Shown: positions 6,976 through 26,318, counted from the stretch's first letter. The stretch is DNA of 32,000 nucleotides from Promethearchaeum syntrophicum (GCF_008000775.2 NZ_CP042905.2:4050001-4082000), one strand, 5' to 3'. The notes: generated by a model not told the origin, from the letters alone. Numbers and translations are program-made.

Positions 6976-8325
6976 TCACCGTTTCTGATATTTAGATTTT
7001 TGATTTTTAGATCCTTGATATTGAGATTTTTTGTATTTAGATTTCTGATAACCAGATTTTTGATATTTTGATTTTTGATTACCGGATTTTTGATATTTAG
7101 ATTTGGATCCTTGGTATTTTCCCTTGCTTTTTTGTTGAAAATCGGGCTTAATCTCCTGTTTTTTAGGGGCTCTTGGAAATTGAGTTTTAATTTTTTCTAT
7201 TTTTCTCTCAATCTCTTCTTTATATTTATCCCCAATAAATTCCCCTTTATAATAATCAACTTTCGCTAGAATACTTATTTTTCCAGAAACCATTCGGGCG
7301 ATTTTTCCACGTAGATACGCTTTTTCTCCTCGAATTTTGTTCCATTGAAATAAAATTCCATATTTAGGAGTTTTTCCACCAGATTTTAATGCTTTGAATA
7401 AGGCTTTTTCAGCCCCTAAAATTTGAATAGTGCTGGATGAAAATTTCGCTAATCTTTCTAAACTTCCTGCAATTGAAATTAGTTTGGCTGTTATTGAAGC
7501 ACCTAAAACAAATTTTAAATTGGGAGCAACTGAATCTAATGCTTCCGAAATGTATTCCTCCAGACTAATTCGATATTCTATTTGATCTAAAACGGTTTTC
7601 GCTAATCTTTTAATCGTAATAATGTCTGTTTCTGATAAATCTCCCCCCAATGATCGTTTCGCTTTTGCTTCAACTGTCTCAATTTTATCTTCACTTAAAC
7701 CGGTAATGGATTGAATTTGATCTACTGTAAAATTATCCCTAAGTCCTAATTCTGCAACAAGTTTTGCATATATAGTGTGGTCATAAATTAATTTATCCGT
7801 TAATTCGGGAAAATGTAACCCATACCATTCTCTCAGTCTTGTTGATAAAATATTAATGGATTTATCCAGATCGACAATAGAATCCCCAGCTTGTTTAATT
7901 TGATAATCTTTTTGGGTAATACTTTCAGCGAATTGTTCTTTAATCATGATTTCCGAGAGAATTTTCGATCTCGAATATAACTGTTTTGCCTTAAAGGGAA
8001 TTTTCGAATCTAATAAGAGTTGTATCAGATTTTCTCTTAAATCTCTAAAACGTGGAATATCTTCGGTAATTACACCAGAAACATCAGAAATATCTTTAAA
8101 AAGAGGTTTATAAGAAGGATTTTCTATTTCAACTGCGGAACAACCTTGTTCTTTCAATTTTTGAATAAATTGCTGAAAATCTGGAGGAAGTTCTCCTTTC
8201 TCCATTAGAATATAGTAGTTGGCCAAATCATTTAATGATTTATCATGATAAATAGTTCCAATTACTTTATTTTTCTCATTTAATACAATTATTCCATGGA
8301 CCGATGTTAATAGTAAAGCTTTCAT
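6976..8325 (-). CDS. nop5: C/D box snoRNP protein Nop5 (Nop56/58 homologue) with a lysine-rich repeat tail
   Basis: Contains the Nop domain ('LGAEKALFKALKSGGKTPKYGILFQ', 'RGKIARMVSGKISILAKVDYY') and forms an operon with flpA. I prefer ATG at 8325 (MKALLLTS...) over the track's TTG at 8334. Confidence 0.9.
   Translation of the reverse strand: MKALLLTSVHGIIVLNEKNKVIGTIYHDKSLNDLANYYILMEKGELPPDFQQFIQKLKEQGCSAVEIENPSYKPLFKDISDVSGVITEDIPRFRDLRENLIQLLLDSKIPFKAKQLYSRSKILSEIMIKEQFAESITQKDYQIKQAGDSIVDLDKSINILSTRLREWYGLHFPELTDKLIYDHTIYAKLVAELGLRDNFTVDQIQSITGLSEDKIETVEAKAKRSLGGDLSETDIITIKRLAKTVLDQIEYRISLEEYISEALDSVAPNLKFVLGASITAKLISIAGSLERLAKFSSSTIQILGAEKALFKALKSGGKTPKYGILFQWNKIRGEKAYLRGKIARMVSGKISILAKVDYYKGEFIGDKYKEEIERKIEKIKTQFPRAPKKQEIKPDFQQKSKGKYQGSKSKYQKSGNQKSKYQKSGYQKSKYKKSQYQGSKNQKSKYQKR
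6979..7137 (-). repeat. in-frame imperfect 30-nt (10-aa) tandem repeat encoding the Nop5 C-terminal tail
   Basis: The last 53 aa read QQKSKGKYQG/SKSKYQKSGN/QKSKYQKSGY/QKSKYKKSQY/QGSKNQKSKY/QKR. The matching plus-strand DNA shows repeated 'gatttttgatatttagattt'-like units. Confidence 0.8.
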
Positions 8326-12883: not shown

Positions 12884-13080
12884 CTTTTTTCCTTTTCTAC
12901 TGGTAACAAATTATCCTTTTTGCTTTTAAATTGATGGTTTCGTTTTTACCCCCAAAAATAATTTCACACTTTTCACAACCACTTAATAGATAAAAGGAAC
13001 ATTTAAAGCGACATATTAAATTAAAACACGCATTCATGAAAAATAAAAGATTAACAAACTAATTGCTATTTGAAAAGATA

Positions 13081-13250
13081 TTGCCTGGCTCACAACCAAG
13101 CCAGACATGTGGAAAATAGAGAGTTGTTGAAAAAAGTTTGGTAGTTCCTACATCTTTGATTCGTGGTTGTGAAATGTGGGGATGCTACGATGCGATAGAC
13201 AATTTTTTCTTGATCAAATCTGATCATCCATACGTCTACGATGGATAATT
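13081..13250. ncRNA. candidate structured non-coding RNA or regulatory element downstream of the giant RuvC gene (strand undetermined)
   Basis: Noticeably more G+C than the flanking intergenic DNA. Hairpins: ctggct(13085-13090)/agccag(13099-13104), and atccat(13226-13231)/atggat(13241-13246) with an inner cg/cg pair. Repeated 9-mer TCACAACCA at 12973-12981 and 13090-13098, with its reverse complement at 13164-13172. ATGTGG occurs twice (13107, 13174) and CTACGATG twice (13185, 13236). There is no transcript evidence. Confidence 0.25.
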
Positions 13251-13405
13251 ATATTAAGAAATTAATGATATATAAATATTTCGTTAATCTATTAGCGGGA
13301 ATAAGAAAATGAGAAAAAATACGCATTATAACCTGAATATCGCTGATTTTACAATAAAAAAACATTGGAAAAGATTTTCGAATGGAAAGAACGTTGGATT
13401 TTTGA

Positions 13406-16400
13406 TTAGATGTTAGAGTAAATTTCGGTAAATCGTTTTAGATCTTTATCATCAGAGGTTGGACTTAGCAATCCTTGAAGCTTTTTGATAATTTTTTTGA
13501 AAGATTTGATTTGTTTTGATTCTTCACAATAATCATTGCGCTTCTTTAGAGTGTTGATTAATAATGTGAATTCTGAGTTTGATAAATTTTTGAACGAAAA
13601 GTAAATATTTTCATTTTCTTTTGAATATGTATGTTCACTGTTAACATCCTCCACGTAAATATTTTTTATTTTGTGAGATAGAACATTCGATAATTGTGTG
13701 ATGAGCGTGTTAAACTGATTTTTTATCTTCTCTTGAGATTTTATTGGAAATCTTGTTTCACGAGCAATCCATAAATTGATTATTTTTGCATAATATATGA
13801 TGGGATCATAATTATGGATGTTTGCGGAAGCGTTGATGTCCCTATTGGCGTAAGTTTTATAATCTGAGCAGTGAAAAACAATACCTGATTGGGAGAAAAT
13901 AAAGACAAGAATTGTTTTTTTATCTGTTTTTTTATTTGTTTTTAGAAGGAAATTTTCTGTATTGATTTTGTTTAAAATTCTTTTGTAATCCCAGATCTGA
14001 AGATCGGCTTTTTTGTATTTGGGGCCCGTTATTTTGACTTTATTTATTTCAGTCGGTTTTTCGGGAGCATGTAAAATTTTATTGTTTTTTCTAATATATT
14101 TGAGTTTATTGGCATTATCTTTGGACAAAACCTCACTTGGAATTGTTATTAGATATCCCTTTAATCCTTCTTTTCCACAAACAGAACATAATTTACTTGT
14201 ATAGGCGGGAGGAACTGTTTTGAGTAAAAATCCGGATAAATTGCTTTTTTCTTCAAGATAATCTTTAAAATTTCCTCGAAGCCAACGAGCGGCGGCCTCT
14301 GAAAATTTACTTCCTTTTTTTGCTTGAAATCCCCTTAAATCTTCGATATAAATCACAGTATCGTCGTTTAAATGTTTTTTAAGATTATGTGGGGAATTAG
14401 AACTGGATTTTTTTGATTTAACATAGTCTGCAATAACCTCTATACTTTGACGAATTGACGTATCCGCTATGTTTTGCTCTTTAGTATTGATTTTCTGTTT
14501 ATAATTTAGGTAGTTTATTCTGAAATAAGAGGGTTTTTTTTTGATGTAGGTGAGGTCCAATTTTTTCTGGAATTGGCTTGCAGACGAAGATAATTTTTTG
14601 GTTTTTTTTATCATTTTATCTATTGATTTATTGATTTCATCAAATGAATCAATGCTTGTGTTTTTGGTATCTCCTTCTAGGGCATCGTAATTTAGAAATT
14701 CTCTTAGCCCTAAATCTATTCCGAGTTTGTTTTTAACATCTAAACCATCTTTAGACATATAAGATGTGGGCTGAATAAAAGGAACAGCACAACCTACCGA
14801 CAAAATGATTTTACCATTGGGTTTAATTGAAACAATGACTGATTTTAGTGGTGAAGAAAGTAGCTGCTTGTAAGGAGTCGGTGTTTTTCTGTATAATAAA
14901 GAAATGAAGGCAGAAATAATTCTTTTGAGATTTTCGGTACGGGGATCTCTACCAAGGTGGAATTTTTTATTTGATTTTAAAGACGCGGTTACCCAATTAT
15001 AAAATATTATCAAAGTATCAATTATAATTATAAATTCGGCAGAAGTTGTGATGATATTAAGGTTTTTAAACTTTTCAATAGTTTTAGATACACTTTTCAT
15101 TTTTTCTAATTCATCTTTCTTCGAATTAAGTGTTAACGTTTGTATTGATGTTAAAGTTTTCTTTCTTTCTAATTTTTTTATCTGGGTATTTATTTTTGTG
15201 ATTTCAGGTTGTAAAAAAACATCGAAAAATTTTGCGTAATTGTAGTAGAGGGATCGAATAGTCTGAAAATCAACAGAACCGAATTCTTTATTTTTCAATT
15301 TTTTTAATTCATTTTTCTTCGATTTCAACATTTCCTGCATTTGCTGAACCCAGATTTTTATTTCCTCTCTTCTTTCTATTTCTTCAATTTCATCATCAAA
15401 TGTAGCAATTTCGTATTCCATTTCTTCAATTTCGCCCTCTAGTTCTTCAATTTCATTTTCATACGCTTCAATTTTACCTTCTAAATCCTTAATTTCGGGA
15501 GTGAATTTAAGGATGCGGTCCTTCATTTCTTTAAAAATCATGTCTGTATTTTCATATGCTGAGAAAAATTGTTTGAATTTTAACCAAATATAGTTTAATG
15601 GAGGTCCTGTAGAATTATTATCATCAAAGTAGGCTATTGTGAAATTTTTCCCTTTTTTTGAATCATCACATATCTTTGAAGTCCAAAAATTTTGATTTTT
15701 TTCATCTGGAGGATGTGTATTAAGAAGAGAATCGGTTAAATCTTTAAATTCTTGAAAAATCCTCCAATTTTTTGAACTGGAAGCGTTTTGGCTATTTTTG
15801 AATTGGTTTTCGGTTTTAAGACCGAATTTAGATGTTAGTAAATAATAATTATATATTTCGGTATTAGGAACTTTTACAGGGATAAATATCAGAAGATAAA
15901 TTTGGCGAAGAATATCGGTTTCTTCTTGTCTATTATAATGACCAACCATATAATAATGGTAACTCTTTGATTTTCCTACTCTGCTACTTGAAAGCAAAGA
16001 TTGGAGAGAGTATGATTCATATTTTTTCAATTCATCTAATTTTTCTAAAGTAATTTTTTTGGTAAAAATTTCGAAATTGGTCTTCCTAAAATTTGGTCTT
16101 TTCAATAAATGATTAAGTAAAAAATGATTTTCAATAGCCTCTTTTTTAGTAATATCCAGTTTCTTACTAATCTCATCATAATTATCCATGGTTTCTTCTG
16201 AAATATCGAAAGGGTTCTTAATGTCAAGGTGTTCGGTTTCTTTATCGATTTCAAAAAAATTATCGAAAATTAAAACTTCTTTTGGAAATTCGGAAAATAA
16301 TTTTTTTTCTTCATATAAACTCTGCTTGATTTTGTTAATGTCTTTAAGCGATGAAATGGAATAATCACGAGATTTTAAAAATTTCTTTGTGAGAAGAAAA

Positions 16401-19400
16401 GTTCGATTGTCTTTTTCCCAATTATCTTTAATCATTCCGGGAGTAAATTCGATTCCTTTAAGCCAATTAACGAGTTCCTTAGAGTTTTTTATATGATCAG
16501 ATGATATGTATTTTTTTTTTGAATCGAGTTTGATTACGTGATGACATAAATAATTCAATTGTCTATGATCATGCCAAACTTTTTTCCAATCAAAAACAAT
16601 ATCGCCATCCTTATCCTTGAAAACAATTTCTTTATATTCTTTCATGCATTCGGTCCAAGAATTTAGGTTTGTATTTTCCAGACCGATATGTTTTAACTTA
16701 AAATTTTGCTTCCATTTGTATATTTTATCAGTGTTGATAATAGGGTAATTGTTTTTTTTTATGGTTCTATATATTATTTTTGATATATCACGTTCCGATC
16801 GGATTATTTTTGAAAAAACACGATGGAAAGAATCGTCATCGTTTTCAATTTTAATTGGATTCAAATATAGATATTCATTATTATCGAAGTCCATGAAATT
16901 CTCAATGATTTTTAGAATTTTAGTTAAATCTTCATTGATTCCAAAATCCGAAACTATTTCTTTTGTAATCTCTTTGTATTCGATCTTGATTTTGGCGGCA
17001 ATGTCCTCAAAATCTTTAACCCATGGTTGGCGGCGTTTTACCCTATTGGTTTCTTGTATTATTGATTTTAGCGATTTTACAATTCCTGAACTTTTTAATT
17101 GGGGGTTGTTTAGTAGGAGACTTATGATAATTTTCAGGTTTTTTATTTGTTCATTGAACCACAATTCCCGAGATTCCATAATATTATTTAATGTGGAAAA
17201 CAAAGGGTTAGTTCGTTCAAATTCAGGAATTTCATCCTTATTTATAAGTAATTCTAAAAAATCCTCATTCTGAAGCGAATCTGAATTTTTAAAGAATTTC
17301 CAATGTTCTTTTGAATCATTTTGAAGGTTAATCAGTTCTTTTTTTGATTTGTTCAATTCGCTTTTAATTACAAGACATTTCTCACAAGATACCGCATAAT
17401 TATCTACCAGTTCTTCCACACATTTTAAGAGTGTAAGCCCTTGAGAAAAATGGATGTATTGAATAGGTGATTTTTGTTTTGTGAGAAAGGATTCTGATAT
17501 AATGTCAACGCTTAAAGCAATGATCTGTAAAATTTGTTTTTTATGCTTCTTCTCATACACAATGTTATTCAAATTACCATAATTGGTATTATTCAGTTCA
17601 TAGTATTGATTTTTTAAAGAATTGATTAATTCATTAAAGAAATTGTCTGTTGTGGGTAGTATCTTTGAAAGTTTAGAAGGAAAATTTGTTAAGTTTATTG
17701 ATTTTTCTTCTATGTTTTTTCCTTTTTTCAAGATAATCTTATTTTTTCCCTTCTTTGGAACTATTAAATCAACATAATTATAATCATTACATGAATATAT
17801 TTGAGGAGAATTTTTACCGAATTTGAAAAGATCTTCTTCATCTTCTGTATAAAAATCACCAGTTTCTGAAAAGAAAGCGTATTTGAGCCCGTAATTTGTA
17901 AATTTATTAAAAAGATTATTAAAATTATTGCTGATGGTAATTTTTTTTTTAATGTCTAAATTTTCCAGCTCTTCTTCTGATTTTTCATCTGGAATTAAAG
18001 ACGAAAAAATGGAAAAATCACTTGTGGTTTCGATCATTTCGAGATATTTCCTATAGAAATTATTAAGATCTTCGTGGAATTCTTTGAAAAGAGGATTAAG
18101 TTTTTTTGTTTTTGGATCAATGATATGAAACGCAATTTCTGAGCGGTTTTTTTTAATAATTTCTCGATTAAGAGATTTAAAAACGTTTTTATTAAACCTA
18201 ACTAAAGGATTGAATTTGGTTTCACTATTTTGAATAAATGTAAGAGGTGATGGGGTTTTAATCAACCCTAATGCATGAGAAAAAGGTTTTGATCCAAATG
18301 TTTTTTCTGTGGTTCTATTTAAATTTTGAAAAATTGCATTCTTTACTTCTTCATTTTTTTTGAAATGTTTTTCATAAATTTTTTTTCGGTTTTTTTTGAT
18401 TTTGTAAAGAGATTTTTCGTGTTTTGATAGGTATATATCAAGAATATCAGAAAAATCCTCGGGGCTTGGAAATACTAGAGTGGAATTTATTTTGGAATTA
18501 ACTTTATTGAAAAATTGAACATAATCAATTTTCCAGCTCTCGAAAGTCTGTAAAAATGTTATGGATTCGTCATCAGGTAATAATTTTTCTAATTTTCTTA
18601 ATTCTTTTTCTAATTCCTTTTCTTTTTCTTCTAGTTTTTTTTTTTTCTCTTCATCAGAACCATCTAAATTCTTTTTAAATCTTTTTAATTTCGATTCGGA
18701 TTCCTTATTTAGAAGTTCTCCAAATTTCTTTTTTAAATTAGATAAAATTTTTGATAGATCATCTGAAAATAAAGAAAGATCTTCATCACAATAAAACCCT
18801 TGAACATTCTCCGAAAACCTAAATTGCTGAGATATGTGAGCAAAATTAAAAATATTGTTATAAATATCAAAGTATGATGGATTTAATTTCAGTTTAGATC
18901 GTTTGGACACATAACTAAGCAAATTTCTGTAAATTTCGTTTCGTTTGAAAATTTTGTTTTTAGAAGTCTGAAGAGATTTTAGATGATTGTTAATGTCTTT
19001 CTCGTCAAAATTAAAGGGAATTTTTTTTAAATCAATGTTTTTACTATGAATTTTATCGTGAATCGATTTAATTGTTTCTGTATCTTTGGGATTTTTCGTC
19101 TTGAAAATATTTCCTGCACTCATAGTAAGGGTTCTAAAAATATTTCCAATCTGATAACGGTGTTTTCTTATTGAAAGATTAATTACTTTGGGATCGGGAT
19201 CTTGAATAAAAACATAAAAATCGCTATTTGGACGCATGCAGTGAGCCAATTCTCTCATATCCATGCCAGGATCTATATCATCCATGCTGAGTTCAGGATA
19301 AAGTACCTCATTATTATATGGATCGTCAGGATCTGTATGAGGACCTTTTGGGATAAGTATGTTTTGAAGGATATACAATGGAGAATCGGGGCTAAGAACA

Positions 19401-19678
19401 ATTTTTTTATTTCGTTTGTAATCAAAATAGTCATAAGTAACCTGTTCCGGCTTTTCTAAACCTAAAATTCTATGAATTCCGTATTTGATGGTAAATTCCT
19501 TAAGGGAAATACAATCCAAACTCATATTGCATGGCTCATTTACTATTAAATTACGAATTTGAATCGGAACATCAGTAATTATTTTTCCTTTTTTATCCAA
19601 TTTGAAGTAATCGTGCTCGAATGAATAATAATCGTGATCTTCTGGGTATTCGGAGGGGTTGGGATTTTCAATGGTCAT
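13406..19678 (-). CDS. giant (2,090 aa) protein with a C-terminal TnpB/Cas12-like RuvC nuclease module and an unrecognised ~1,550-aa N-terminal region
   Basis: The ORF is an uninterrupted 6,273 nt in very AT-rich DNA, where chance ORFs are short. The C-terminal layout matches TnpB/Cas12: '...KIILSVGCAVP...NKLGIDLGLREF' (RuvC-I, D1655, nt 14714-14716); 'DTVIYIEDLRG' (RuvC-II, E1779, nt 14342-14344); 'PPAYTSKLCSVCGKEG' (YTSxxCxxCG zinc-ribbon entry, C1831/C1834); 'YANRDINASANI' (RuvC-III, D1947, nt 13838-13840). The N-terminal part shows only charged coiled-coil stretches, for example 'EEKKKKLEEKEKELEKELRKLEKLL' and 'LEGKIEAYENEIEELEGEIEEMEYEIATFDDEIEEIERREE'. Confidence 0.75.
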   Translation of the reverse strand: MTIENPNPSEYPEDHDYYSFEHDYFKLDKKGKIITDVPIQIRNLIVNEPCNMSLDCISLKEFTIKYGIHRILGLEKPEQVTYDYFDYKRNKKIVLSPDSPLYILQNILIPKGPHTDPDDPYNNEVLYPELSMDDIDPGMDMRELAHCMRPNSDFYVFIQDPDPKVINLSIRKHRYQIGNIFRTLTMSAGNIFKTKNPKDTETIKSIHDKIHSKNIDLKKIPFNFDEKDINNHLKSLQTSKNKIFKRNEIYRNLLSYVSKRSKLKLNPSYFDIYNNIFNFAHISQQFRFSENVQGFYCDEDLSLFSDDLSKILSNLKKKFGELLNKESESKLKRFKKNLDGSDEEKKKKLEEKEKELEKELRKLEKLLPDDESITFLQTFESWKIDYVQFFNKVNSKINSTLVFPSPEDFSDILDIYLSKHEKSLYKIKKNRKKIYEKHFKKNEEVKNAIFQNLNRTTEKTFGSKPFSHALGLIKTPSPLTFIQNSETKFNPLVRFNKNVFKSLNREIIKKNRSEIAFHIIDPKTKKLNPLFKEFHEDLNNFYRKYLEMIETTSDFSIFSSLIPDEKSEEELENLDIKKKITISNNFNNLFNKFTNYGLKYAFFSETGDFYTEDEEDLFKFGKNSPQIYSCNDYNYVDLIVPKKGKNKIILKKGKNIEEKSINLTNFPSKLSKILPTTDNFFNELINSLKNQYYELNNTNYGNLNNIVYEKKHKKQILQIIALSVDIISESFLTKQKSPIQYIHFSQGLTLLKCVEELVDNYAVSCEKCLVIKSELNKSKKELINLQNDSKEHWKFFKNSDSLQNEDFLELLINKDEIPEFERTNPLFSTLNNIMESRELWFNEQIKNLKIIISLLLNNPQLKSSGIVKSLKSIIQETNRVKRRQPWVKDFEDIAAKIKIEYKEITKEIVSDFGINEDLTKILKIIENFMDFDNNEYLYLNPIKIENDDDSFHRVFSKIIRSERDISKIIYRTIKKNNYPIINTDKIYKWKQNFKLKHIGLENTNLNSWTECMKEYKEIVFKDKDGDIVFDWKKVWHDHRQLNYLCHHVIKLDSKKKYISSDHIKNSKELVNWLKGIEFTPGMIKDNWEKDNRTFLLTKKFLKSRDYSISSLKDINKIKQSLYEEKKLFSEFPKEVLIFDNFFEIDKETEHLDIKNPFDISEETMDNYDEISKKLDITKKEAIENHFLLNHLLKRPNFRKTNFEIFTKKITLEKLDELKKYESYSLQSLLSSSRVGKSKSYHYYMVGHYNRQEETDILRQIYLLIFIPVKVPNTEIYNYYLLTSKFGLKTENQFKNSQNASSSKNWRIFQEFKDLTDSLLNTHPPDEKNQNFWTSKICDDSKKGKNFTIAYFDDNNSTGPPLNYIWLKFKQFFSAYENTDMIFKEMKDRILKFTPEIKDLEGKIEAYENEIEELEGEIEEMEYEIATFDDEIEEIERREEIKIWVQQMQEMLKSKKNELKKLKNKEFGSVDFQTIRSLYYNYAKFFDVFLQPEITKINTQIKKLERKKTLTSIQTLTLNSKKDELEKMKSVSKTIEKFKNLNIITTSAEFIIIIDTLIIFYNWVTASLKSNKKFHLGRDPRTENLKRIISAFISLLYRKTPTPYKQLLSSPLKSVIVSIKPNGKIILSVGCAVPFIQPTSYMSKDGLDVKNKLGIDLGLREFLNYDALEGDTKNTSIDSFDEINKSIDKMIKKTKKLSSSASQFQKKLDLTYIKKKPSYFRINYLNYKQKINTKEQNIADTSIRQSIEVIADYVKSKKSSSNSPHNLKKHLNDDTVIYIEDLRGFQAKKGSKFSEAAARWLRGNFKDYLEEKSNLSGFLLKTVPPAYTSKLCSVCGKEGLKGYLITIPSEVLSKDNANKLKYIRKNNKILHAPEKPTEINKVKITGPKYKKADLQIWDYKRILNKINTENFLLKTNKKTDKKTILVFIFSQSGIVFHCSDYKTYANRDINASANIHNYDPIIYYAKIINLWIARETRFPIKSQEKIKNQFNTLITQLSNVLSHKIKNIYVEDVNSEHTYSKENENIYFSFKNLSNSEFTLLINTLKKRNDYCEESKQIKSFKKIIKKLQGLLSPTSDDKDLKRFTEIYSNI

Positions 19679-19727: not shown

Positions 19728-19913
19728 TTATAAAAAATATAACTGGGTATCTTCTGGATTTTCGGGATCGGAAATGCGAATAGTTACAAAATATGGGCTA
19801 TCTGGTTCCATAAATTTAAGTAAATTTTGCACGGTGGGATTTTCATATAAGATTTCGGGGCTGAGATCTTGAACTGGTTCGTTTTTAGCGTCTTCATTTT
19901 TTTGATCTTTCAT
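19728..19913 (-). CDS. small acidic hypothetical protein (61 aa), cassette member
   Basis: Sits in a 262-nt gap between two long same-strand genes, 27 nt after the upstream stop and 49 nt before the giant gene's start. No motif recognised. It is short, so its coding status is uncertain. Confidence 0.45.
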   Translation of the reverse strand: MKDQKNEDAKNEPVQDLSPEILYENPTVQNLLKFMEPDSPYFVTIRISDPENPEDTQLYFL

Positions 19914-19940: not shown

Positions 19941-22223
19941 TTATTTTAGACTCACTCTTTTCCCGTTTCTGACCTTTTTAATCTCTACATTATGGCGGTT
20001 TTTTAAATGAGTTGAATGAGTTGAAAATTTTTTAACTATTTTCAAACTATCTTTTGTCACGATCGAAACTGTTACTTCTTTGTTCTCAGGCAATTGGAAA
20101 ATATTTCGAAATTTTTCGGATGTGAAATATTCCTGTAAAGATTTATTTTGAAATAGGTTGGAATTTTTAATATCCGAACTCAGTTTTTTGACCGCTCGTA
20201 AATAATCCGCTCTTTTGTAGTCAAAATTACGAACAATCGTCGGGAAATTGGTCACGTATAAATTATGGTTTTTAAAATAATGTGAAACAAACGGCAAACT
20301 CTGTCTTACCATGAACTGTTTGCGATCTTTATCTGTAATGGGATTTTGAATGGCTAAGATTTTATCTTTTTTGGCGAAGGTATCCCAAGCTTCTCGCACA
20401 GTCATATCCACAAGATCGAATTTTTCAACATCTATCTCGAAATAATGCCCAAGTTCTTTGATTGAAAAGGACTTTTGGGTTCTATTTATTTTAACCCCGT
20501 AATATAATATTTCTGCATCGGGAACCACGAAATCAAGGGCGACTTTAACCATAGGCGATAGTAAAAAGGTTCTCATGGGCGTGTCAGAAAGAATGAAACC
20601 GGTTGGAACTTTCTTTTTTAATAAATCGGAGAGAATAGTAAGGAGTTGGGGGCGATAAATGTCTTCATTAAATGCTGCCGCTTTCCAAAGTCGCATAAAC
20701 CGATTAAGGCCGATAGGATATAAATTAGGAAAATCCATAGCAATTACACGCACTTCTCTGGAAAGAGTAACATTGCCTGCCATTAAATTCCGTAAATACA
20801 TTTTGCGATCGAATAACATATCGAAGAAATTATTATCGCTTACCAATGCGTGTTTATATAATCCATTACCAAATTTTTCCCAAATCTTTTTAATTGCAGG
20901 ATCGGATATGTTCCAAATGTCCCGATATGCGCCCTTAACAGCGATTCCAAGACCATAAGCCACGATTGCGAAGGGGATAAGTTCCATAAACTGCGGAATT
21001 TCGAAGAAATATAGCGACTTCATGCGAATATCTCCAGGCATTGGAATGGCTTTTTGGAGCCTTTTTAGTTTATAATCGAGCTTTCTCTGATATCGATCCC
21101 TTTCATTTTCGATTCGTTTTATTTGCACTTTGATTTGTTTTATTTTCTTATCCACACGCGCAATTTCGGTATCGGCACGCGCTACCATATATACTAAATC
21201 CTTTAGTTCTTCGGTGGCATTTTTACGCTTTTTTGCTCGCTCTCTTATTTTTCGTTCTTTTTCTTTTCGCCTTTGTTCTTCTATTTTTTTATTTCGGGCG
21301 ATATTATCGTCAAGTTGATTCATCCAATCGCTTTTTCTCTGGCGGGATTTTTTTCTTTGGGCTTCAATTTCTGCAATTTCGGCCCAGCGTTTTATTTCTT
21401 GGAGGTGCCTTTCTTCTTTTAGTAGTTTTTCTTCCTCAGCACGGATCCGTAAAAATTCATTAAAATGTAATTCTGTTTTTTCCAAAACTTTTATCCAATT
21501 AATATCTTGATGTTTCACCAACCATTCCGCCCATTCTTCGATACTGATTATGGATTCAGGTTCCGCTGCTTGTTTTTTAGTTGTGGGCCAAATTTTAAAT
21601 CTGATTTTTGCCTTTCTAAAATAATGAATTGCAATCGGAACTTCGTTTTCACCTTCTAATTGCCAATATGTATAAGGTTTAAGAACAATTTTATTCCATC
21701 CATGCAGTGATCTTAAATTAAAATTGGCAAACAGGCTCGTTCCCATTTCCTTTTGCATTTGGTGCAAGAAGGAATGGCTTAAATCATCTTCGTGTTCGAG
21801 ATAATAAGTAACTACCCATTTGGCAGGAAAAGTATAACCATCATACATGAAATTATTTCGATGTTCGAACTGCAATCGTTCTTCCGTCTGGAACATAACG
21901 GCCATGTCCTCAATCAATTTTATTTTTTCAATATCCATTTGATCGTGAAATATGTCCGCTTCATCGATGTTATTCTGGTTGTAATTGATCCGCTGCCTGC
22001 GATATTTTGATGTTGAATCACAATTATTTGACGGGATTTTATTGCGTTTATATCCTACGGCATAGGGAAATTTTTGTTGAGGGCGATCCAAAGCGAGCCA
22101 TTTTTCATCATCTTCAGAATTATCTTCTGCAATAGAAGGATCGAAGTCTTCTTGTTTCTCTTTAATGATGTTTTCCAGAACATATTTATCACGATAATTG
22201 TCGGGTTCGTTATCTTTTTCCAT
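19941..22223 (-). CDS. hypothetical ~760-aa protein with a central highly charged coiled coil, cassette member
   Basis: Long ORF. I place the start at ATG 22221-22223 ('MEKDNEPDNYRDKY...'), which leaves a 25-nt gap after the upstream 108-aa ORF. The track's start at 22346 would overlap that ORF by 98 nt. The central segment 'RAEEEKLLKEERHLQEIKRWAEIAEIEAQRKKSRQRK...EEQRRKEKERKIRERAKKRK...IKVQIKRIENERDRYQRKL' is K/R/E-rich. It is followed by the hydrophobic segment 'FMELIPFAIVAYGLGIAV'. No known domain recognised. Confidence 0.6.
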   Translation of the reverse strand: MEKDNEPDNYRDKYVLENIIKEKQEDFDPSIAEDNSEDDEKWLALDRPQQKFPYAVGYKRNKIPSNNCDSTSKYRRQRINYNQNNIDEADIFHDQMDIEKIKLIEDMAVMFQTEERLQFEHRNNFMYDGYTFPAKWVVTYYLEHEDDLSHSFLHQMQKEMGTSLFANFNLRSLHGWNKIVLKPYTYWQLEGENEVPIAIHYFRKAKIRFKIWPTTKKQAAEPESIISIEEWAEWLVKHQDINWIKVLEKTELHFNEFLRIRAEEEKLLKEERHLQEIKRWAEIAEIEAQRKKSRQRKSDWMNQLDDNIARNKKIEEQRRKEKERKIRERAKKRKNATEELKDLVYMVARADTEIARVDKKIKQIKVQIKRIENERDRYQRKLDYKLKRLQKAIPMPGDIRMKSLYFFEIPQFMELIPFAIVAYGLGIAVKGAYRDIWNISDPAIKKIWEKFGNGLYKHALVSDNNFFDMLFDRKMYLRNLMAGNVTLSREVRVIAMDFPNLYPIGLNRFMRLWKAAAFNEDIYRPQLLTILSDLLKKKVPTGFILSDTPMRTFLLSPMVKVALDFVVPDAEILYYGVKINRTQKSFSIKELGHYFEIDVEKFDLVDMTVREAWDTFAKKDKILAIQNPITDKDRKQFMVRQSLPFVSHYFKNHNLYVTNFPTIVRNFDYKRADYLRAVKKLSSDIKNSNLFQNKSLQEYFTSEKFRNIFQLPENKEVTVSIVTKDSLKIVKKFSTHSTHLKNRHNVEIKKVRNGKRVSLK

Positions 22224-22248
22224 TTTGATTTTCTCTCGATTATGTTTC

Positions 22249-22575
22249 TTATAATGGATTAAAAAAATCGATACTTTGCTGTATTTTTTCAATTTTGGTA
22301 GGTGTTTCTTGATTTTCATAAATTTCTTGTTCTTTGTTATTTTCATCTTTAATATTTCGGGCTCTTGTGAGTCTACTCATAAAATCAAATACAATTTTCC
22401 CATTTTCATCATTATCATCCCCCAATTTGCTTCTTATATGCTTTATGAGATCCAGAGCTTTATACATTGAATCTGGATCGTCAAATAATCTTTGATACCA
22501 GCGGGAAAATTTATGTTTATAACAATCCATATCTAAAAATGCCGAATTTCTGTGGAGTTTGTTTTCTTGTTCCAT
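22249..22575 (-). CDS. hypothetical 108-aa protein, first gene of the minus-strand cassette
   Basis: ORF directly downstream of the divergent intergenic region and co-directional with the three following genes. No motif recognised. Confidence 0.5.
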   Translation of the reverse strand: MEQENKLHRNSAFLDMDCYKHKFSRWYQRLFDDPDSMYKALDLIKHIRSKLGDDNDENGKIVFDFMSRLTRARNIKDENNKEQEIYENQETPTKIEKIQQSIDFFNPL

Positions 22576-23276
22576 TTTTTTTTCTGTTCCTTTTTTGTTT
22601 ATTTTTCGCTTTTTTGCTCTATAATAATCACCGATTTAGCGGATCCTGAATACCACTGTTTTTCCAAAAAACTAAATTTCCCCCGATTTTTTTGAAAAAT
22701 GATTTATACTAATTATATTTGAGCTAAACAACCAATATAAATGTTAATGGGCTCAATGTATCCTATATTGACTGAATGTTCTCAATAGATAAGTTCATAT
22801 TTAAAGAATGTTCCGATAGAGTACTTTGGATCTCTATCGGGTACTTTGGATCTCTATCGGGTACTTTGAGCCCAATATTTAAATGAACAATTGAAAAAAT
22901 TGAAGAATAAAGAGTATTTTGAAAATTCGTTAAAAATTTATCTCATATGGAACGTATATTAAACTAAATCCTTATTAATTAAATAATGTGAAGTAGTTTG
23001 TTATGATTTTGATTAAGCGTCCCCTGTTTTTTATAAGAATATTTGTCAATAGGAAAAAAACACAAATTCTGTTACATTGTTTGTAATATTAAATGGTGTA
23101 AAAAAATCTTCCTAAATAATGGTTTCTCGAAAGTCATAATACCCGAGACAATTTCGACTAAGTTTTACTAACTAACTATAAGATGATGGATAATTTTTTA
23201 AACATCATTTCTAAAATATTAATCAGAAAGAAACAAAGCATGTATTGAGTATTATTTTTTAAATTTTTGAAATGAG
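22576..23276. promoter_or_regulatory. divergent promoter/regulatory region between the RuvC cassette and the DISARM-like operon
   Basis: A 701-bp non-coding gap flanked by two outward-facing operons. TATA-like A/T boxes occur on both sides: 'ctataataat' at 22619-22628 for the minus-strand operon and 'ttttttaaat' at 23255-23264 for the plus-strand operon. It contains the tandem/inverted repeat at 22813-22873. Exact promoters are not determinable from sequence alone. Confidence 0.5.
22813..22868. repeat. 20-bp direct tandem repeat (2.4 copies) preceded by an 8-nt inverted arm
   Basis: GTACTTTGGATCTCTATCGG occurs at 22821-22840 and 22841-22860, with a partial third copy GTACTTTG at 22861-22868. 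CCGATAGA (22813-22820) is the reverse complement of TCTATCGG (22833-22840 and 22853-22860). The outer pair GGGCTCA (22749-22755) / TGAGCCC (22867-22873) brackets the block. Confidence 0.9.
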
Positions 23277-26200
23277 ATGTTAATGGTTATGAGCAAGGTA
23301 GATTTCCAAATTGGGCAAGTAGTTGATGCACGAAACCGACTCTGGAGGATAGAACGAATAATTACAAAAAAATCAGAGTTTGAAGAAGATGCAAATATAA
23401 ATCTATTAGAAGTATCGAGTATTGATGGAGTTCCAAGTCGGTGCAATTTATTATTAAATATAGTTAAAACATCTGAAGGCAAGGAAATTGTTGAAACAAT
23501 CGAAAATATCAAAGAAGCCAAAATTTTAAAACCAGATACTTCTAAATTAGGTAATCCCGATTTTCAAAAGGTTCTCATTCAAGCCATGCGTTATGACTTG
23601 ATTTTTGGAACTTCTAACTTTATAAGTTTAGCCAACAGTCGTGTGATTCCTGTTTCGTATCAGATGGTCCCAGTTCTAATGGCTATGGCTCAGGAAAAGG
23701 TTCGTCTTCTAATTGCAGATGATGTTGGGTTAGGTAAAACTATCGAAGCAGGTTTAATTATTCAAGAATTATTAGGAAGAAGAAAAATCAACCGTGTATT
23801 ATTTGCGGTCCCAGCTAACCTCAGAGAACAATGGCGGTCAATTATGCAAAGATTCTTTGGAATTGAAGCAAAAATTCTCTCAAGCCAAACAAGAAGAAAA
23901 TTGCAAAAAGAACTCTTGGTAGGCGGTGATCCTTGGGGTTATTACAATTTTCTGATTACTTCTCAAGATTATTTAAGTCGCCAGGAAATCCTTGAGAGAG
24001 CAATCCAGTTTAAATTTGATATGGTTGTTATTGATGAAGCCCATAATATTGCCAAACCTCGATATATGATGAGATCAGGGGGGAACAAAAAAAGCAAACG
24101 AAAAAATAAGATGGCAGTCAGTCTATCAAAATATCCACATTTGCTTTTACTGACAGCCACCCCGCATAATGGTTATCACGAAAGTTTTGCCAGTCTAATA
24201 CATTTATTAAATCCGGAATTGGTTGATGACAAAAACGATTGGGCAATTGATCCAGAAAATGCAAAACGGTTTATATGCCAGCGTCGTAAAGCTGATGTCA
24301 TGAAATGGATGGAAGATGATAAGAAAAGAAAATTATTCCCGACTGTCCATCGCATCGAAGAGTTTATTATACCTTCCGTTGAATTTAAGGAAGTAATTAA
24401 GTGTCTTGACCAATACAAAGACCTTGTGTTTAAATCTGCAAAAGAAGATGGAAAAGGAGTCCGTTTTATTAAGTTCTGGGGAGTATTACACATATATCGT
24501 CGTTTAATAAGTAGTCCCCAAGCTTTACTTAAGACAATTTATAACAAGATCAGAGACTCAAATGAAAAGACAGACACCTCAGGGAAGAAAATTAAACTTC
24601 GGGAAGAAGAAATCCAAGATATTTTAGAGAAAGTTCGTAGCAACGTGACTGATACCAATACAGATGAAAACCTTGAAGAATATGAAATAGACCGAAAAAA
24701 TGATTCTGAATTCGGGAGCGAAAAATTAGGACCTGATCTGATTAAAAAACTTAGTGAACTTGAGACACTCACAAAAAAATGTTTGGGACGTAAAAAAGAC
24801 CCCAAATTCAATTACTTCTATAATAATACTCTTCAGCAATTGTTAAATTTCAACAAAAAGATAATAATATTTACCCGTTATATTGATACAGCTGATTACA
24901 TCTGTTTGGAATTAACTAAAATTGTACAAAAGAAGTCCCTCATGAAAGGATTTGAAATCATCGGTGTTGTGGGTACAGATCCCATCCATGTAAGAGAAGA
25001 AAAATATAGAAAATTCCTTGGTCTTGAGAAAGGTATCATGGTGGCTACAGACTGCATGAGTGAAGGAATCGACTTGCAATATTCTTCCAACATCGTTGTA
25101 AATTATGAATTAACTTGGAATCCAAATCGATTGGAGCAACGAAATGGAAGGGTGGATCGGTTTGGACAGCCAGAGAAGGATGTATATCTTCGCACATTGA
25201 TCATTAAAGAATCACTTGAGTTAGCTATTTTGGATCTATTATATCGAAAAATAAAAAACATTGGTGGAGATATGGGGTATATTCCCAAATATTTTGGTAA
25301 TATGGATTTAATTGGAGATATTTTAAACGATTATTTTGAAGAAGAAGAGGAATTTCGATTTGTAAAAACTAAACACGGTGCTAAGCAGCTTACATTGGAT
25401 AATTATGGAGTGTTTGCAGATGAAATGAAAGAAATGCTTAGCAACCATGTTGATAATAATATGAATAATATTATTAGTGAAGACTCTTTTTACGGACAAA
25501 CTGTTTTTGATTTCTCAGATGTGCAAGAACGAATGGACGAGATGGAAAAATCTATAGGAAATATTAATGGATTATTACTTTTTCTTCAAAAATCACTTCC
25601 CTTTTTCGATTGTTCTATTGAGCCAATGAAAAAATCGAATTTTCCTCCCAATGCAGTATTTAAAATTACTCTCAGTGATACTCTCCTCGAGATTATGAAT
25701 AAAGATGAGATTACTGGCAATGAGTGCATTATTACAACGGACCCATATTTTGGTGCAAAACAACAGGATATTGAAACATTGAGTTTAAAATCCCCAGTGT
25801 TAAATTCAATCATTAGTATTGTTAAAGAAAAAGGATTTATCACGACTCATGATTTTTATGGTCGAACCGCTGCTGCATCGAGTGATTTAATATCTGAGTT
25901 GACAGCGGTGCTTTATTACAAAATTCGCTATTTAGTCTCCACAAAGGAACAAAGCATAATGGAAGAATTGCTACCAATTGGATTGAAAATCTATGAAGAT
26001 AAACCACTCCTTAAGCGTGAGAAAACGGAGAAATTATGGACCCAATATACGTCTGGAAAAACTTCAGATTATCCTGGAATTGCAAACCAAGTAAAACAAA
26101 ATATAAAAGATCTATTCGATAGATCAGATTTTGATTCTGTTATTAAAAATGCCATTAAGAGTAATCTGTGCGTTGTGGTTGACAATTCAAGGAATCTTAT

Positions 26201-26318
26201 GAAGAATTTGCAAGCAAAGAACTTGGTTGATCTTGAAGACTTGAAAGGAATGGATGACATTTCTATAATTTCCTATGATCCTATTAGTGTAACTCTCTTC
26301 TATCCAGGAGGTTATTAA
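23277..26318 (+). CDS. SNF2-family helicase/ATPase (DrmD-like)
   Basis: SNF2 motifs: 'LIADDVGLGKTIEAG' (I), 'VVIDEAHN' (II, D253 at nt 24033), 'LLLTATPHNG' (III), 'ATDCMSEGIDLQ' and 'WNPNRLEQRNGRVDRFGQ' (VI). Three closely spaced ATGs (23277, 23283, 23289) make the exact start ambiguous. Confidence 0.9.
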   Translation: MLMVMSKVDFQIGQVVDARNRLWRIERIITKKSEFEEDANINLLEVSSIDGVPSRCNLLLNIVKTSEGKEIVETIENIKEAKILKPDTSKLGNPDFQKVLIQAMRYDLIFGTSNFISLANSRVIPVSYQMVPVLMAMAQEKVRLLIADDVGLGKTIEAGLIIQELLGRRKINRVLFAVPANLREQWRSIMQRFFGIEAKILSSQTRRKLQKELLVGGDPWGYYNFLITSQDYLSRQEILERAIQFKFDMVVIDEAHNIAKPRYMMRSGGNKKSKRKNKMAVSLSKYPHLLLLTATPHNGYHESFASLIHLLNPELVDDKNDWAIDPENAKRFICQRRKADVMKWMEDDKKRKLFPTVHRIEEFIIPSVEFKEVIKCLDQYKDLVFKSAKEDGKGVRFIKFWGVLHIYRRLISSPQALLKTIYNKIRDSNEKTDTSGKKIKLREEEIQDILEKVRSNVTDTNTDENLEEYEIDRKNDSEFGSEKLGPDLIKKLSELETLTKKCLGRKKDPKFNYFYNNTLQQLLNFNKKIIIFTRYIDTADYICLELTKIVQKKSLMKGFEIIGVVGTDPIHVREEKYRKFLGLEKGIMVATDCMSEGIDLQYSSNIVVNYELTWNPNRLEQRNGRVDRFGQPEKDVYLRTLIIKESLELAILDLLYRKIKNIGGDMGYIPKYFGNMDLIGDILNDYFEEEEEFRFVKTKHGAKQLTLDNYGVFADEMKEMLSNHVDNNMNNIISEDSFYGQTVFDFSDVQERMDEMEKSIGNINGLLLFLQKSLPFFDCSIEPMKKSNFPPNAVFKITLSDTLLEIMNKDEITGNECIITTDPYFGAKQQDIETLSLKSPVLNSIISIVKEKGFITTHDFYGRTAAASSDLISELTAVLYYKIRYLVSTKEQSIMEELLPIGLKIYEDKPLLKREKTEKLWTQYTSGKTSDYPGIANQVKQNIKDLFDRSDFDSVIKNAIKSNLCVVVDNSRNLMKNLQAKNLVDLEDLKGMDDISIISYDPISVTLFYPGGY

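Follow-up and report, generated by a model that had tools for sequence, protein, structure and literature searches.

A giant protein of an Asgard archaeon as a likely member of the TnpB superfamily, with a candidate hairpin RNA 3' of its gene

Compact genome editors have come from TnpB and Cas12 proteins, and how these proteins evolve by accretion of domains is an active topic. The locus described here raises the question of what a protein could be that ends in a nuclease of this type and is 2,090 amino acids (aa) long. It lies in a stretch of 32,000 nucleotides (nt) of the genome of Promethearchaeum syntrophicum MK-D1 (NZ_CP042905.2:4050001-4082000; hereafter the window), which has a guanine plus cytosine (GC) content of ~30% and an archaeal gene content that includes fibrillarin, Nop5, Elp3 and RNase HII. 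The protein, referred to here as the giant protein and encoded by the giant gene, is 100% identical to QEE14476.1 / WP_147661429.1, whose existing annotation goes no further than ‘zinc ribbon domain-containing protein’; the literature, searched by these two accessions and by the 16-mer motif described below, mentions neither. An original prediction had described it as a nuclease of TnpB/Cas12 type that fits neither a canonical TnpB nor a known type V effector and may be domesticated. Our analysis suggests that the giant protein most probably belongs to the TnpB (OMEGA) superfamily, as an oversized form found only in Promethearchaeota, and that it is most likely not a component of a CRISPR or DISARM system.

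The RuvC motifs GIDLGLR (D1655), IYIEDL (E1779) and NRDINASANI (D1947), together with AYTSKLCSVCG, are present at the residues named by the original prediction, and its central claim, a C-terminal RuvC nuclease of TnpB/Cas12 type with an intact D-E-D triad, is borne out by profile searches, an alignment with TnpBs and a Foldseek search. In a 17-sequence alignment that includes 11 ordinary TnpBs, the three residues occupy invariant or near-invariant D/E/D columns, and the triad is likewise retained in the relatives P0002, P0006 and P0009 and in an ortholog from locus L058, all introduced below. Pfam PF07282 (Cas12f1-like_TNB) matches residues 1803-1837 (9.7e-11, 42.1 bits against a cutoff of 26.3), and NCBIfam NF040570 (guided_TnpB) matches residues 1434-1836 at 5.8e-15, yet with 55.5 bits against a curated cutoff of 100. 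PF01385 (OrfB_IS605) is weak, at 16.2 bits against 30.5, TIGR01766 is below its cutoff, at 17.6 bits against 32, and the only PADLOC models to match are weak ones for Cas12f (1e-5) and Csx1. Our own profile, made from nine ordinary TnpBs, aligns to residues 1621-1836 and 1931-1960, with no match ahead of residue 1621.

Structure prediction points in the same direction. A sequence search of the PDB with residues 1401-2090 returned one marginal match, ChCas12b (E 0.18). An AlphaFold2 (AF2) model of residues 1200-2090 has a mean predicted local distance difference test score (pLDDT) of 52.7 overall and of 70-90 in the RuvC core, and its first 40 Foldseek matches in the PDB are all Cas12b, f, i, h or m, TnpB or Fanzor, with E values down to 8e-7; the TnpB matches include 8iaz and 8exa, with the TnpBs of ISFba1 and ISDra2 among them, and the Fanzor matches include 9b0l and 9ceu. 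The assignment of a nuclease domain of the TnpB/Cas12 kind is, in our assessment, close to certain; the C-terminal ~340-650 residues appear to form its WED-RuvC-TNB core, with an intact triad. Within this core an insertion of ~95 aa separates the two halves of the zinc finger. The last ~190 residues of the N-terminal extension may in addition be a diverged REC domain, as predicted from the NF040570 alignment, which extends back to residue 1434.

The view that this is neither a canonical TnpB nor a known type V effector stands, given the sub-cutoff scores of the TnpB models and a window in which an array search, together with scans of its open reading frames (ORFs) against Pfam, NCBIfam and PADLOC, detected no CRISPR-like array, cas1, cas2, cas4 or transposase. 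The size of the protein also lies outside the known range, as had been claimed: the largest Cas12b in the Altae-Tran 2023 survey has 1,888 aa (PMC10691335).

Residues 1 to ~1430 have no match in Pfam, NCBIfam, PADLOC or our TnpB profile. The N-terminal extension is mostly predicted helix, with coiled-coil-like stretches at about residues 330-370 and 1390-1460, and an AF2 model of residues 1-1200, made from a 5-row alignment, is almost wholly helical and unusable (mean pLDDT 35). A hidden second, degenerate TnpB module or internal repeat was considered and rejected, as a BLASTP comparison of the N-terminal part with the C-terminal one, and with itself, gave nothing. At the gene's own base composition (28% GC) the probability of 2,090 stop-free codons by chance is ~1e-80. 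Locus L058 (Logan SRR5629171, from a related organism) holds an ortholog 64.5% identical over residues 4-2088, and the ratio of nonsynonymous to synonymous substitution rates between the two (dN/dS, by Nei-Gojobori) is 0.22 for the whole gene and 0.16, 0.29, 0.18, 0.31 and 0.21 for residues 1-330, 331-700, 701-1230, 1231-1600 and 1601-1980, respectively. Because the ratio is 0.16-0.31 in every segment, purifying selection acts across the full protein and, by this measure, the extension is real protein that is constrained as much as the nuclease core. The C-terminal tail is conserved with P0002 as far as about residue 2027.

Relatives are few. An exhaustive HMMER search with residues 891-2090 against 1.84 billion cluster representatives returned only 15 proteins, all on Promethearchaeota-type or archaeal contigs. 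They include P0002 (at least 1,592 aa, on a 6-kb JGI contig, locus L005, at whose start the ORF is still open), P0006 (at least 1,008 aa and cut at both ends, from a metagenome-assembled genome of Promethearchaeota), P0009 (483 aa, locus L007) and P0010 (671 aa), while several of the rest are short fragments. P0002 matches the core over residues 1584-2027 (E 6e-30) and shares part of the extension, namely residues 890-1216 (E 1e-6) and 717-759. The motifs DLGLR, IE(D/N)L, W(L/I)xG, YTSK and RDxNAxxN run through the family, with CxxC in most members, as does GxKGYL followed by an insertion of ~60-100 aa. P0009 begins at the last WED strands, with nothing N-terminal to them, and its gene lies between two ORFs of no known family, one of 379 aa or more (L007 3-1142) and one of 118 aa (L007 2648-3004); the idea that L007 holds a split giant gene was dropped because these flanking ORFs have no detectable homology to the giant family. 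Less exhaustive searches recovered little of this. A word-indexed protein search with the full protein, in which low complexity rich in lysine and asparagine swamps the prefilter, returned only the protein itself, with the core alignment it returned ordinary TnpBs only, and with residues 1-700 it found the ortholog P0032; a scan of a genome collection with a RuvC-II/TNB alignment gave haloarchaeal TnpBs only and missed the source genome itself.

The original prediction had also stated that no insertion sequence (IS) ends lie near the gene, and it was in part from this that domestication was drawn. However, a conserved IS-end-like element is found 130-212 nt 3' of the giant-gene stop codon, at about 13194-13276 on the minus strand, in the 520-nt spacer (522 nt for folding, z = -2.3) that separates the stop codon from the next gene, which encodes an Nmad3-domain protein. 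Read in the direction of the giant gene, the element consists of a TATA-like box, two hairpins (160-197 nt 3' of the stop codon) and a short run of last conserved bases (Table 1). The box, a putative promoter, reads TTTAAATA in L005, L007 and a further locus, L027, and lies 23-25 nt ahead of hairpin 1 in five of five loci. The stem letters of hairpin 1 vary yet pair (GCCAG/CTGGC, TGCAC/GTGCA and GCCAC/GTGGC in relatives), with loops of 7-9 nt. Hairpin 2 is an 18-mer whose 6-bp stem encloses a GAUU loop and whose 16-mer core, TGATCAGATTTGATCA, is palindromic, with TGATCA on either side of GATT. Exact copies of the 18-mer occur on the same strand 201 nt past the P0002 stop codon in L005 and past both P0009 and the 118-aa ORF in L007, and the L007 element therefore carries extra genes; the L058 version reads CGATCTGATTAGATCAAG, in which the closing A-U pair has become U-A, a compensatory change. 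The number of 18-mer matches expected by chance in the window is ~0.12, even with up to 3 mismatches.

A covariance model of the element scores 69-82 bits in the five loci. The hairpin positions pair in 89% of alignment cells, against 20-45% in slid controls, and three pairs are changed on both sides; this holds although MAFFT places L007 one column out of register. Rfam returned nothing for the element at its gathering threshold or up to E 1, Rfam and transfer RNA (tRNA) scans of the whole window gave no match, and neither did a search of a phage database with the downstream region. Three other readings of the motif were tried and rejected. It does not appear to encode a small peptide, as the frames of the 18-mer (LIRFDQ, LIKSD) are inconsistent among three loci; it overlaps the stop codon of an IF-2B-like gene in L007, but there is no such convergent host gene in the window or in L005; and a terminator of the giant gene would be expected to have a T-run behind the hairpins, whereas the T-run sits ~50 nt past the stop codon. 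The position of this T-run suggests that the messenger RNA ends ahead of the element and, in combination with the TATA-like box, points to a candidate separate short transcript starting at hairpin 1.

The far end of the element can be placed by comparison with L058. Nucleotide identity is 69-84% through the 3' spacer and 35-39% right past GATCAAGAAAAAATTGTCTATC (~13194), so that homology with the L058 locus ends 15 nt past the 16-mer, and the genes beyond are different, namely Nmad3 and Elp3 in the window versus LigB, GNAT and the ribosomal proteins S7, S12 and L7Ae in L058. The identity drop and the different genes beyond it indicate that the conserved block ends at the hairpin element.

Past this boundary there is also a unit with 16-nt inverted repeats that are 15/16 complementary. 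It begins 16 nt past the proposed boundary, encloses a strong GC hairpin at 13082-13107 and ends 84 nt ahead of the Nmad3 start codon; candidate readings are plain flank, an inserted small element, a segment of a longer RNA and a pair resembling guide and target.

The origin of the element is suggested by other occurrences of its motif. A metagenome scan for the 18-mer yielded 48 loci, about 20 of which are AT-rich and lie on contigs of ~0.1-1.5 Mb with 27-34% GC; one of these contigs is listed in IMG/VR as a 437-kb viral genome. In nine of these AT-rich loci the motif lies ~40 nt from the start of a protein of 196-208 aa with a MerR-type helix-turn-helix (HTH) and a resolvase domain, by this architecture an IS607-type serine recombinase, TnpA. 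TnpB cargos of 386, 526 or 666 aa (the last without a Pfam match) come after the recombinase, the 16-mer recurs just past each tnpB stop codon on the tnpB strand (TGATCAGATTTGATCATTGTTTTTAGAACGG), and conservation among the copies ends at CAGTTAGAAACCC. Because it is present at both the left and the right ends of these metagenomic elements, the 16-mer is evidently a subterminal inverted repeat of an IS607-type (serine-recombinase) transposon family, and the AT-rich contigs that carry this family are probably giant viruses. Relative to the giant gene, the 16-mer has the position and orientation that the right-end copy has relative to tnpB. According to PMC6188088, IS607 elements terminate in GG and carry short repeated motifs as well as imperfect inverted repeats close to their ends; the arrangement of the 16-mer in the metagenomic elements agrees with this. 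The window has a right-end-like copy at 13194-13245, and no GG is evident at its proposed boundary. We consider an IS607-type origin of the downstream element likely. Thus the statement that IS ends are lacking does not hold, as a structured element with an IS607-type subterminal repeat lies 3' of the gene and homology to the ortholog locus stops just past it, and the argument for domestication that had been drawn from it loses its footing.

Members of the multi-copy IS607-type family were seen in L012, L019, L053, L024, L031, L039, L040, L044 and L057 (Ga0308157_*, Ga0247725_1000001 and others), and short solo ends occur on giant-virus-like contigs, for example beside a tRNA gene in L018.

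We hypothesise that the giant protein is an oversized TnpB carried as cargo by a non-autonomous or immobilised IS607-type element, and put the chance that this explanation is correct at about even. On this hypothesis the transposon, at whose right end the giant gene would sit, would either have lost its serine recombinase or always have been without one, and the TATA-like box would drive transcription of the downstream element as a short RNA. In this RNA the 5' part (hairpin 1, hairpin 2 and an A-rich tail, ~55 nt in all) would act as scaffold, and the 3' part would be a guide sequence taken from the adjoining DNA. The giant protein would bind the hairpin RNA and use its RuvC site to cut matching DNA, in the way that TnpB maintains its transposon, while the helical N-terminal extension would form an enlarged REC-like, nucleic-acid-binding or scaffolding lobe or contribute some further activity. 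RNA-guided action of the giant protein is plausible, and the hairpin element is the candidate RNA.

Several observations weigh against this hypothesis, some bearing on the RNA and the element and others on the integrity of the gene. The transcript, its ends and its guide are candidates that we infer from motifs. Omega RNAs that have been characterised begin within the tnpB ORF and are ~150-250 nt long; a scaffold of ~55 nt driven by a separate promoter would be out of the ordinary. The window ORFs scanned include no serine-recombinase tnpA, and neither a pattern search (up to 4 mismatches) nor the covariance model found a left end or a second copy in the window. The three metagenomic TnpB cargos are not detectably closer to the giant protein than ordinary TnpBs are and, because these three unrelated cargos share it, the 16-mer appears to track the transposase or the transposon ends and not one TnpB. 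Finally, a solo and complete small element (L027 679-744, on a contig of 41% GC), with the TATA-like box, both hairpins and AAGAAAAAATTGTC, lies between unrelated genes and has no TnpB-like gene within 700 nt.

One possibility raised by these findings is that the nuclease is real and the hairpin element is not its guide RNA, being instead a DNA site for the recombinase or an independent small mobile element or small RNA gene, in which case the giant protein would be targeted via its N-terminal domains or another RNA. The occurrence of the 16-mer at the left and right ends of IS607-like elements whose TnpB cargos are unrelated, and the solo copy in L027, would fit this, as would the short solo copies on giant-virus-like contigs such as L018 and the palindromic form of the 16-mer, which would suit a dimeric DNA-binding protein. 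However, the letters of hairpin 1 are free but complementary and its loops vary in length, which argues for a folded single strand rather than a fixed protein-binding site. IS607 recombinases act on double-stranded DNA (PMC6188088). Moreover, strand and approximate distance of the element are maintained in four family members although the identity of their proteins is only ~26%. We judge this alternative to be improbable and prefer the hypothesis of an RNA-guided TnpB.

The remaining points concern the gene itself. The WED/REC part is modelled at a pLDDT below 50, where the extent of the NF040570 alignment is what suggests a REC domain, and of the two CxxC motifs of the zinc finger the first is present, whereas the second is CSDY in MK-D1 and CLDC in the ortholog. 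The L058 ortholog contains a single in-frame TAA at codon 925 (L058 5117-5119) and has been called as two genes of 924 aa and 1,163 aa; this may reflect recent pseudogenisation, an error of assembly or a protein truly made in two parts. In L009 (‘Prometheoarchaeum_2’, 7533-8058) only two fragments were found, corresponding to residues 1048-1147 and 1263-1353 and 50-52% identical, and this locus is, to judge from these remnants, a degraded copy in a different genomic context. The in-frame TAA and the L009 remnants indicate that the family also decays. It could be argued from them, together with the loss of the second CxxC in MK-D1 and an identity to the ortholog of 64% for the giant protein versus 80% for its 801-aa neighbour, that the giant gene, having once worked as a fusion or transposon gene, is now a functionless relic decaying into a pseudogene. 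We regard this as very unlikely, as it is difficult to reconcile with an open frame of this length at 28% GC, with the low dN/dS throughout and with a triad that is intact in every member examined.

The genes around the locus bear on a further reading, in which the giant protein is a domesticated host effector that serves no transposon and acts as a defence or regulatory nuclease with the 801-aa protein and perhaps the DISARM/Druantia-like genes, its targeting provided by RNA from a fixed downstream element or by the N-terminal domains. The original prediction placed the giant gene in a four-gene operon next to DISARM. Co-directional ORFs of 108 aa, 801 aa and 61 aa do accompany the giant gene, but the grouping is loose, and Nmad3 lies 520 nt on, beyond the boundary. 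L058 has a counterpart of the 801-aa protein, with 80% identity and in synteny with the giant gene; it adds a 267-aa paralog of the 801-aa protein, which occupies the place of the 61-aa ORF. In the window this small ORF takes up most of the gap ahead of the giant gene, and it is absent from L058. L058 likewise has no Nmad3 gene at the orthologous locus, which makes a connection of that gene with the giant gene improbable. On the other side, 700 nt away and divergent from the cluster, are DrmD-like, DrmMI-like and DruE/DrmA-like genes; because the last of these fits DruE (2.7e-54) better than DrmA (5.8e-8), the defence island looks like a DISARM/Druantia hybrid.

The link of the giant gene to DISARM is one of adjacency only. 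Neither the giant protein nor its 801-aa neighbour is matched by any of the PADLOC models for DISARM and Druantia components (DrmA-E, DrmMI/II, DruA-H), the defence genes are transcribed divergently, and in L058 the downstream context is different and the upstream side is cut by the contig end, so that the weight formerly given to DISARM is not sustained. The case for domestication draws on the defence genes as neighbours, on the absence of tnpA and of a left end within 32 kb, on the apparently single copy, on strong purifying selection over the entire protein and on the synteny with the 801-aa gene held in L058. To these may be added the sequence past the boundary, which is 15/16 complementary to a site ~85-100 nt upstream of the start of the next gene and thereby recalls TldR-type TnpB repressors (PMC10705468). 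Against this, synteny between two close relatives says little, and the more distant relatives are found in other contexts, L007 beside MCM, helicase and IF-2B-like genes and L005 beside a zinc-finger gene. The triad is intact, unlike that of nuclease-dead TldR, and the in-frame stop in L058 and the remnants in L009 resemble the turnover of a selfish element. On balance we think domestication unlikely and retain the non-autonomous or immobilised IS607-type element as the preferred explanation.

Table 1. Features of the giant-gene locus, with positions counted from the first nucleotide of the window.
Feature	Position	Strand	Basis or remark
Giant gene, 2,090 aa, ATG start	13406..19678	-	QEE14476.1
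N-terminal extension, aa 1 to ~1620	14819..19678	-	no recognisable domain
TnpB/Cas12-type core (last WED strands, RuvC, TNB), aa 1621-1960	13799..14818	-	profiles, alignment, AF2/Foldseek
C-terminal tail past RuvC-III, aa 1961-2090	13406..13798	-	dN/dS 0.21
RuvC-I aspartate D1655 (GIDLGLR)	14714..14716	-	alignment
RuvC-II glutamate E1779 (IYIEDL)	14342..14344	-	alignment
RuvC-III aspartate D1947 (NRDINASANI)	13838..13840	-	alignment, own TnpB profile
TATA-like box TTTATATA	13269..13276	-	read from sequence
Hairpin 1, 5-bp stem TCCAT / ATGGA	13227..13245	-	covariation
Hairpin 2, 18-mer TGATCAGATTTGATCAAG	13209..13226	-	exact copies in L005, L007
Last conserved bases AAAAAATTGTCTATC, proposed element boundary	13194..13208	-	identity drop vs L058
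Unit with 16-nt inverted repeats CACATTTCACAACCAC ... GTGGTTGTGAAAAGTG	12967..13178	-	15/16 complementary
Nmad3-domain protein, 272 aa	12065..12883	-	2.6e-15; between giant locus and Elp3
61-aa acidic ORF (MKDQKNEDAKNEPVQDLSPE...), between 801-aa gene and giant gene	19728..19913	-	
801-aa protein, upstream of giant gene	19941..22346	-	no Pfam, NCBIfam, PADLOC match
DrmD-like SNF2 helicase	23277-26318	+	
DrmMI-like adenine methyltransferase	26320-30699	+	
DruE/DrmA-like helicase	from ~30702	+	runs off window

The 700-nt spacer before the DrmD-like gene contains a perfect 20-bp tandem repeat, GTACTTTGGATCTCTATCGG, in 2.4 copies (22821-22868). Read on the minus strand it gives CCGATAGAG twice, then, just past the repeats, its reverse complement CTCTATCGG at 22812-22820, a sequence that resembles GTCTATCGC at the proposed boundary of the downstream element (13192-13200). 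The repeat was considered as a possible left end or TnpA-type repeat site, for which the evidence is insufficient.

The superfamily itself is already known; what this locus appears to add is a TnpB derivative of giant size, confined to Asgard archaea, whose gene is followed by an IS607-type end and a candidate short guide RNA. The 2023 survey (PMC10691335) quotes no Cas12 or TnpB of this size, and because the added 1,400-1,600 residues resemble nothing known and yet evolve under selection, the giant protein widens the range of size and architecture of the superfamily. The hairpin element provides a concrete hypothesis for an RNA partner, testable in the cultivated Asgard archaeon MK-D1. Its end motif, held in common with giant-virus-like contigs, points to a transposon lineage that spans archaea and eukaryotic viruses. 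A bolder interpretation, and in our view a doubtful one, is that the locus represents an undescribed class of giant OMEGA effectors in Asgard archaea, with ~1,500 aa of new domains and a short, independently transcribed RNA that resembles a CRISPR RNA, has two stacked 5' hairpins and a 3' guide, and arises from an IS607-type right end. On this interpretation the end motif in giant viruses of eukaryotes would mark an IS607 lineage that has passed between the Asgard archaea and the viruses of eukaryotes, which, if true, would bear on how TnpB reached eukaryotes as Fanzor. Should the giant protein turn out to be merely an oversized selfish TnpB, its current annotation would still be corrected.

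Comparison with known systems places these features in context. TldR is also a TnpB derivative fixed in a chromosome without a transposase, and has a neighbouring non-coding element as a possible guide source. In contrast, the triad of the giant protein is intact, and the protein is enormous and not trimmed.

Fanzor2 and the IS607-type TnpBs of giant viruses are linked to the giant protein by the 16-mer end motif, found on contigs of 0.4-1.5 Mb with 27-34% GC, and by a fold match to mimivirus Fanzor2 (9b0l). The TnpB cargos of those elements, however, are not detectably closer to it than ordinary TnpBs, and its host is archaeal.

The large Cas12 proteins, Cas12b and its relatives, resemble it in having a RuvC/TNB core enlarged by accretion of helical domains, and ChCas12b (9klp, E 8e-7) and Cas12f are its best structural matches. 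They differ in that the giant locus has no CRISPR array and no cas1, cas2 or cas4, in that its host is an Asgard archaeon, and in that the extra mass of the giant protein is one N-terminal block and not recognisable REC1/REC2 insertions.

Compared with IS607-family TnpB, the giant protein is five times the usual size (2,090 versus ~400 aa), with an N-terminal block of ~1,430-1,600 aa, the zinc-finger insertion and scores below the TnpB cutoffs; its locus is without a nearby tnpA or left end, and its candidate RNA is short, has an apparent promoter of its own and does not overlap the 3' end of the ORF. What it has in common with this family is the WED-RuvC-TNB core, the D-E-D order, YTSxxCxxC and a RuvC-III motif of the DRDxNA type (NRDINA in the giant protein), and, like an IS607-family tnpB, the giant gene reads toward transposon-end-like sequence, where the 16-nt subterminal repeat is identical to that of elements with a MerR-HTH and resolvase TnpA.

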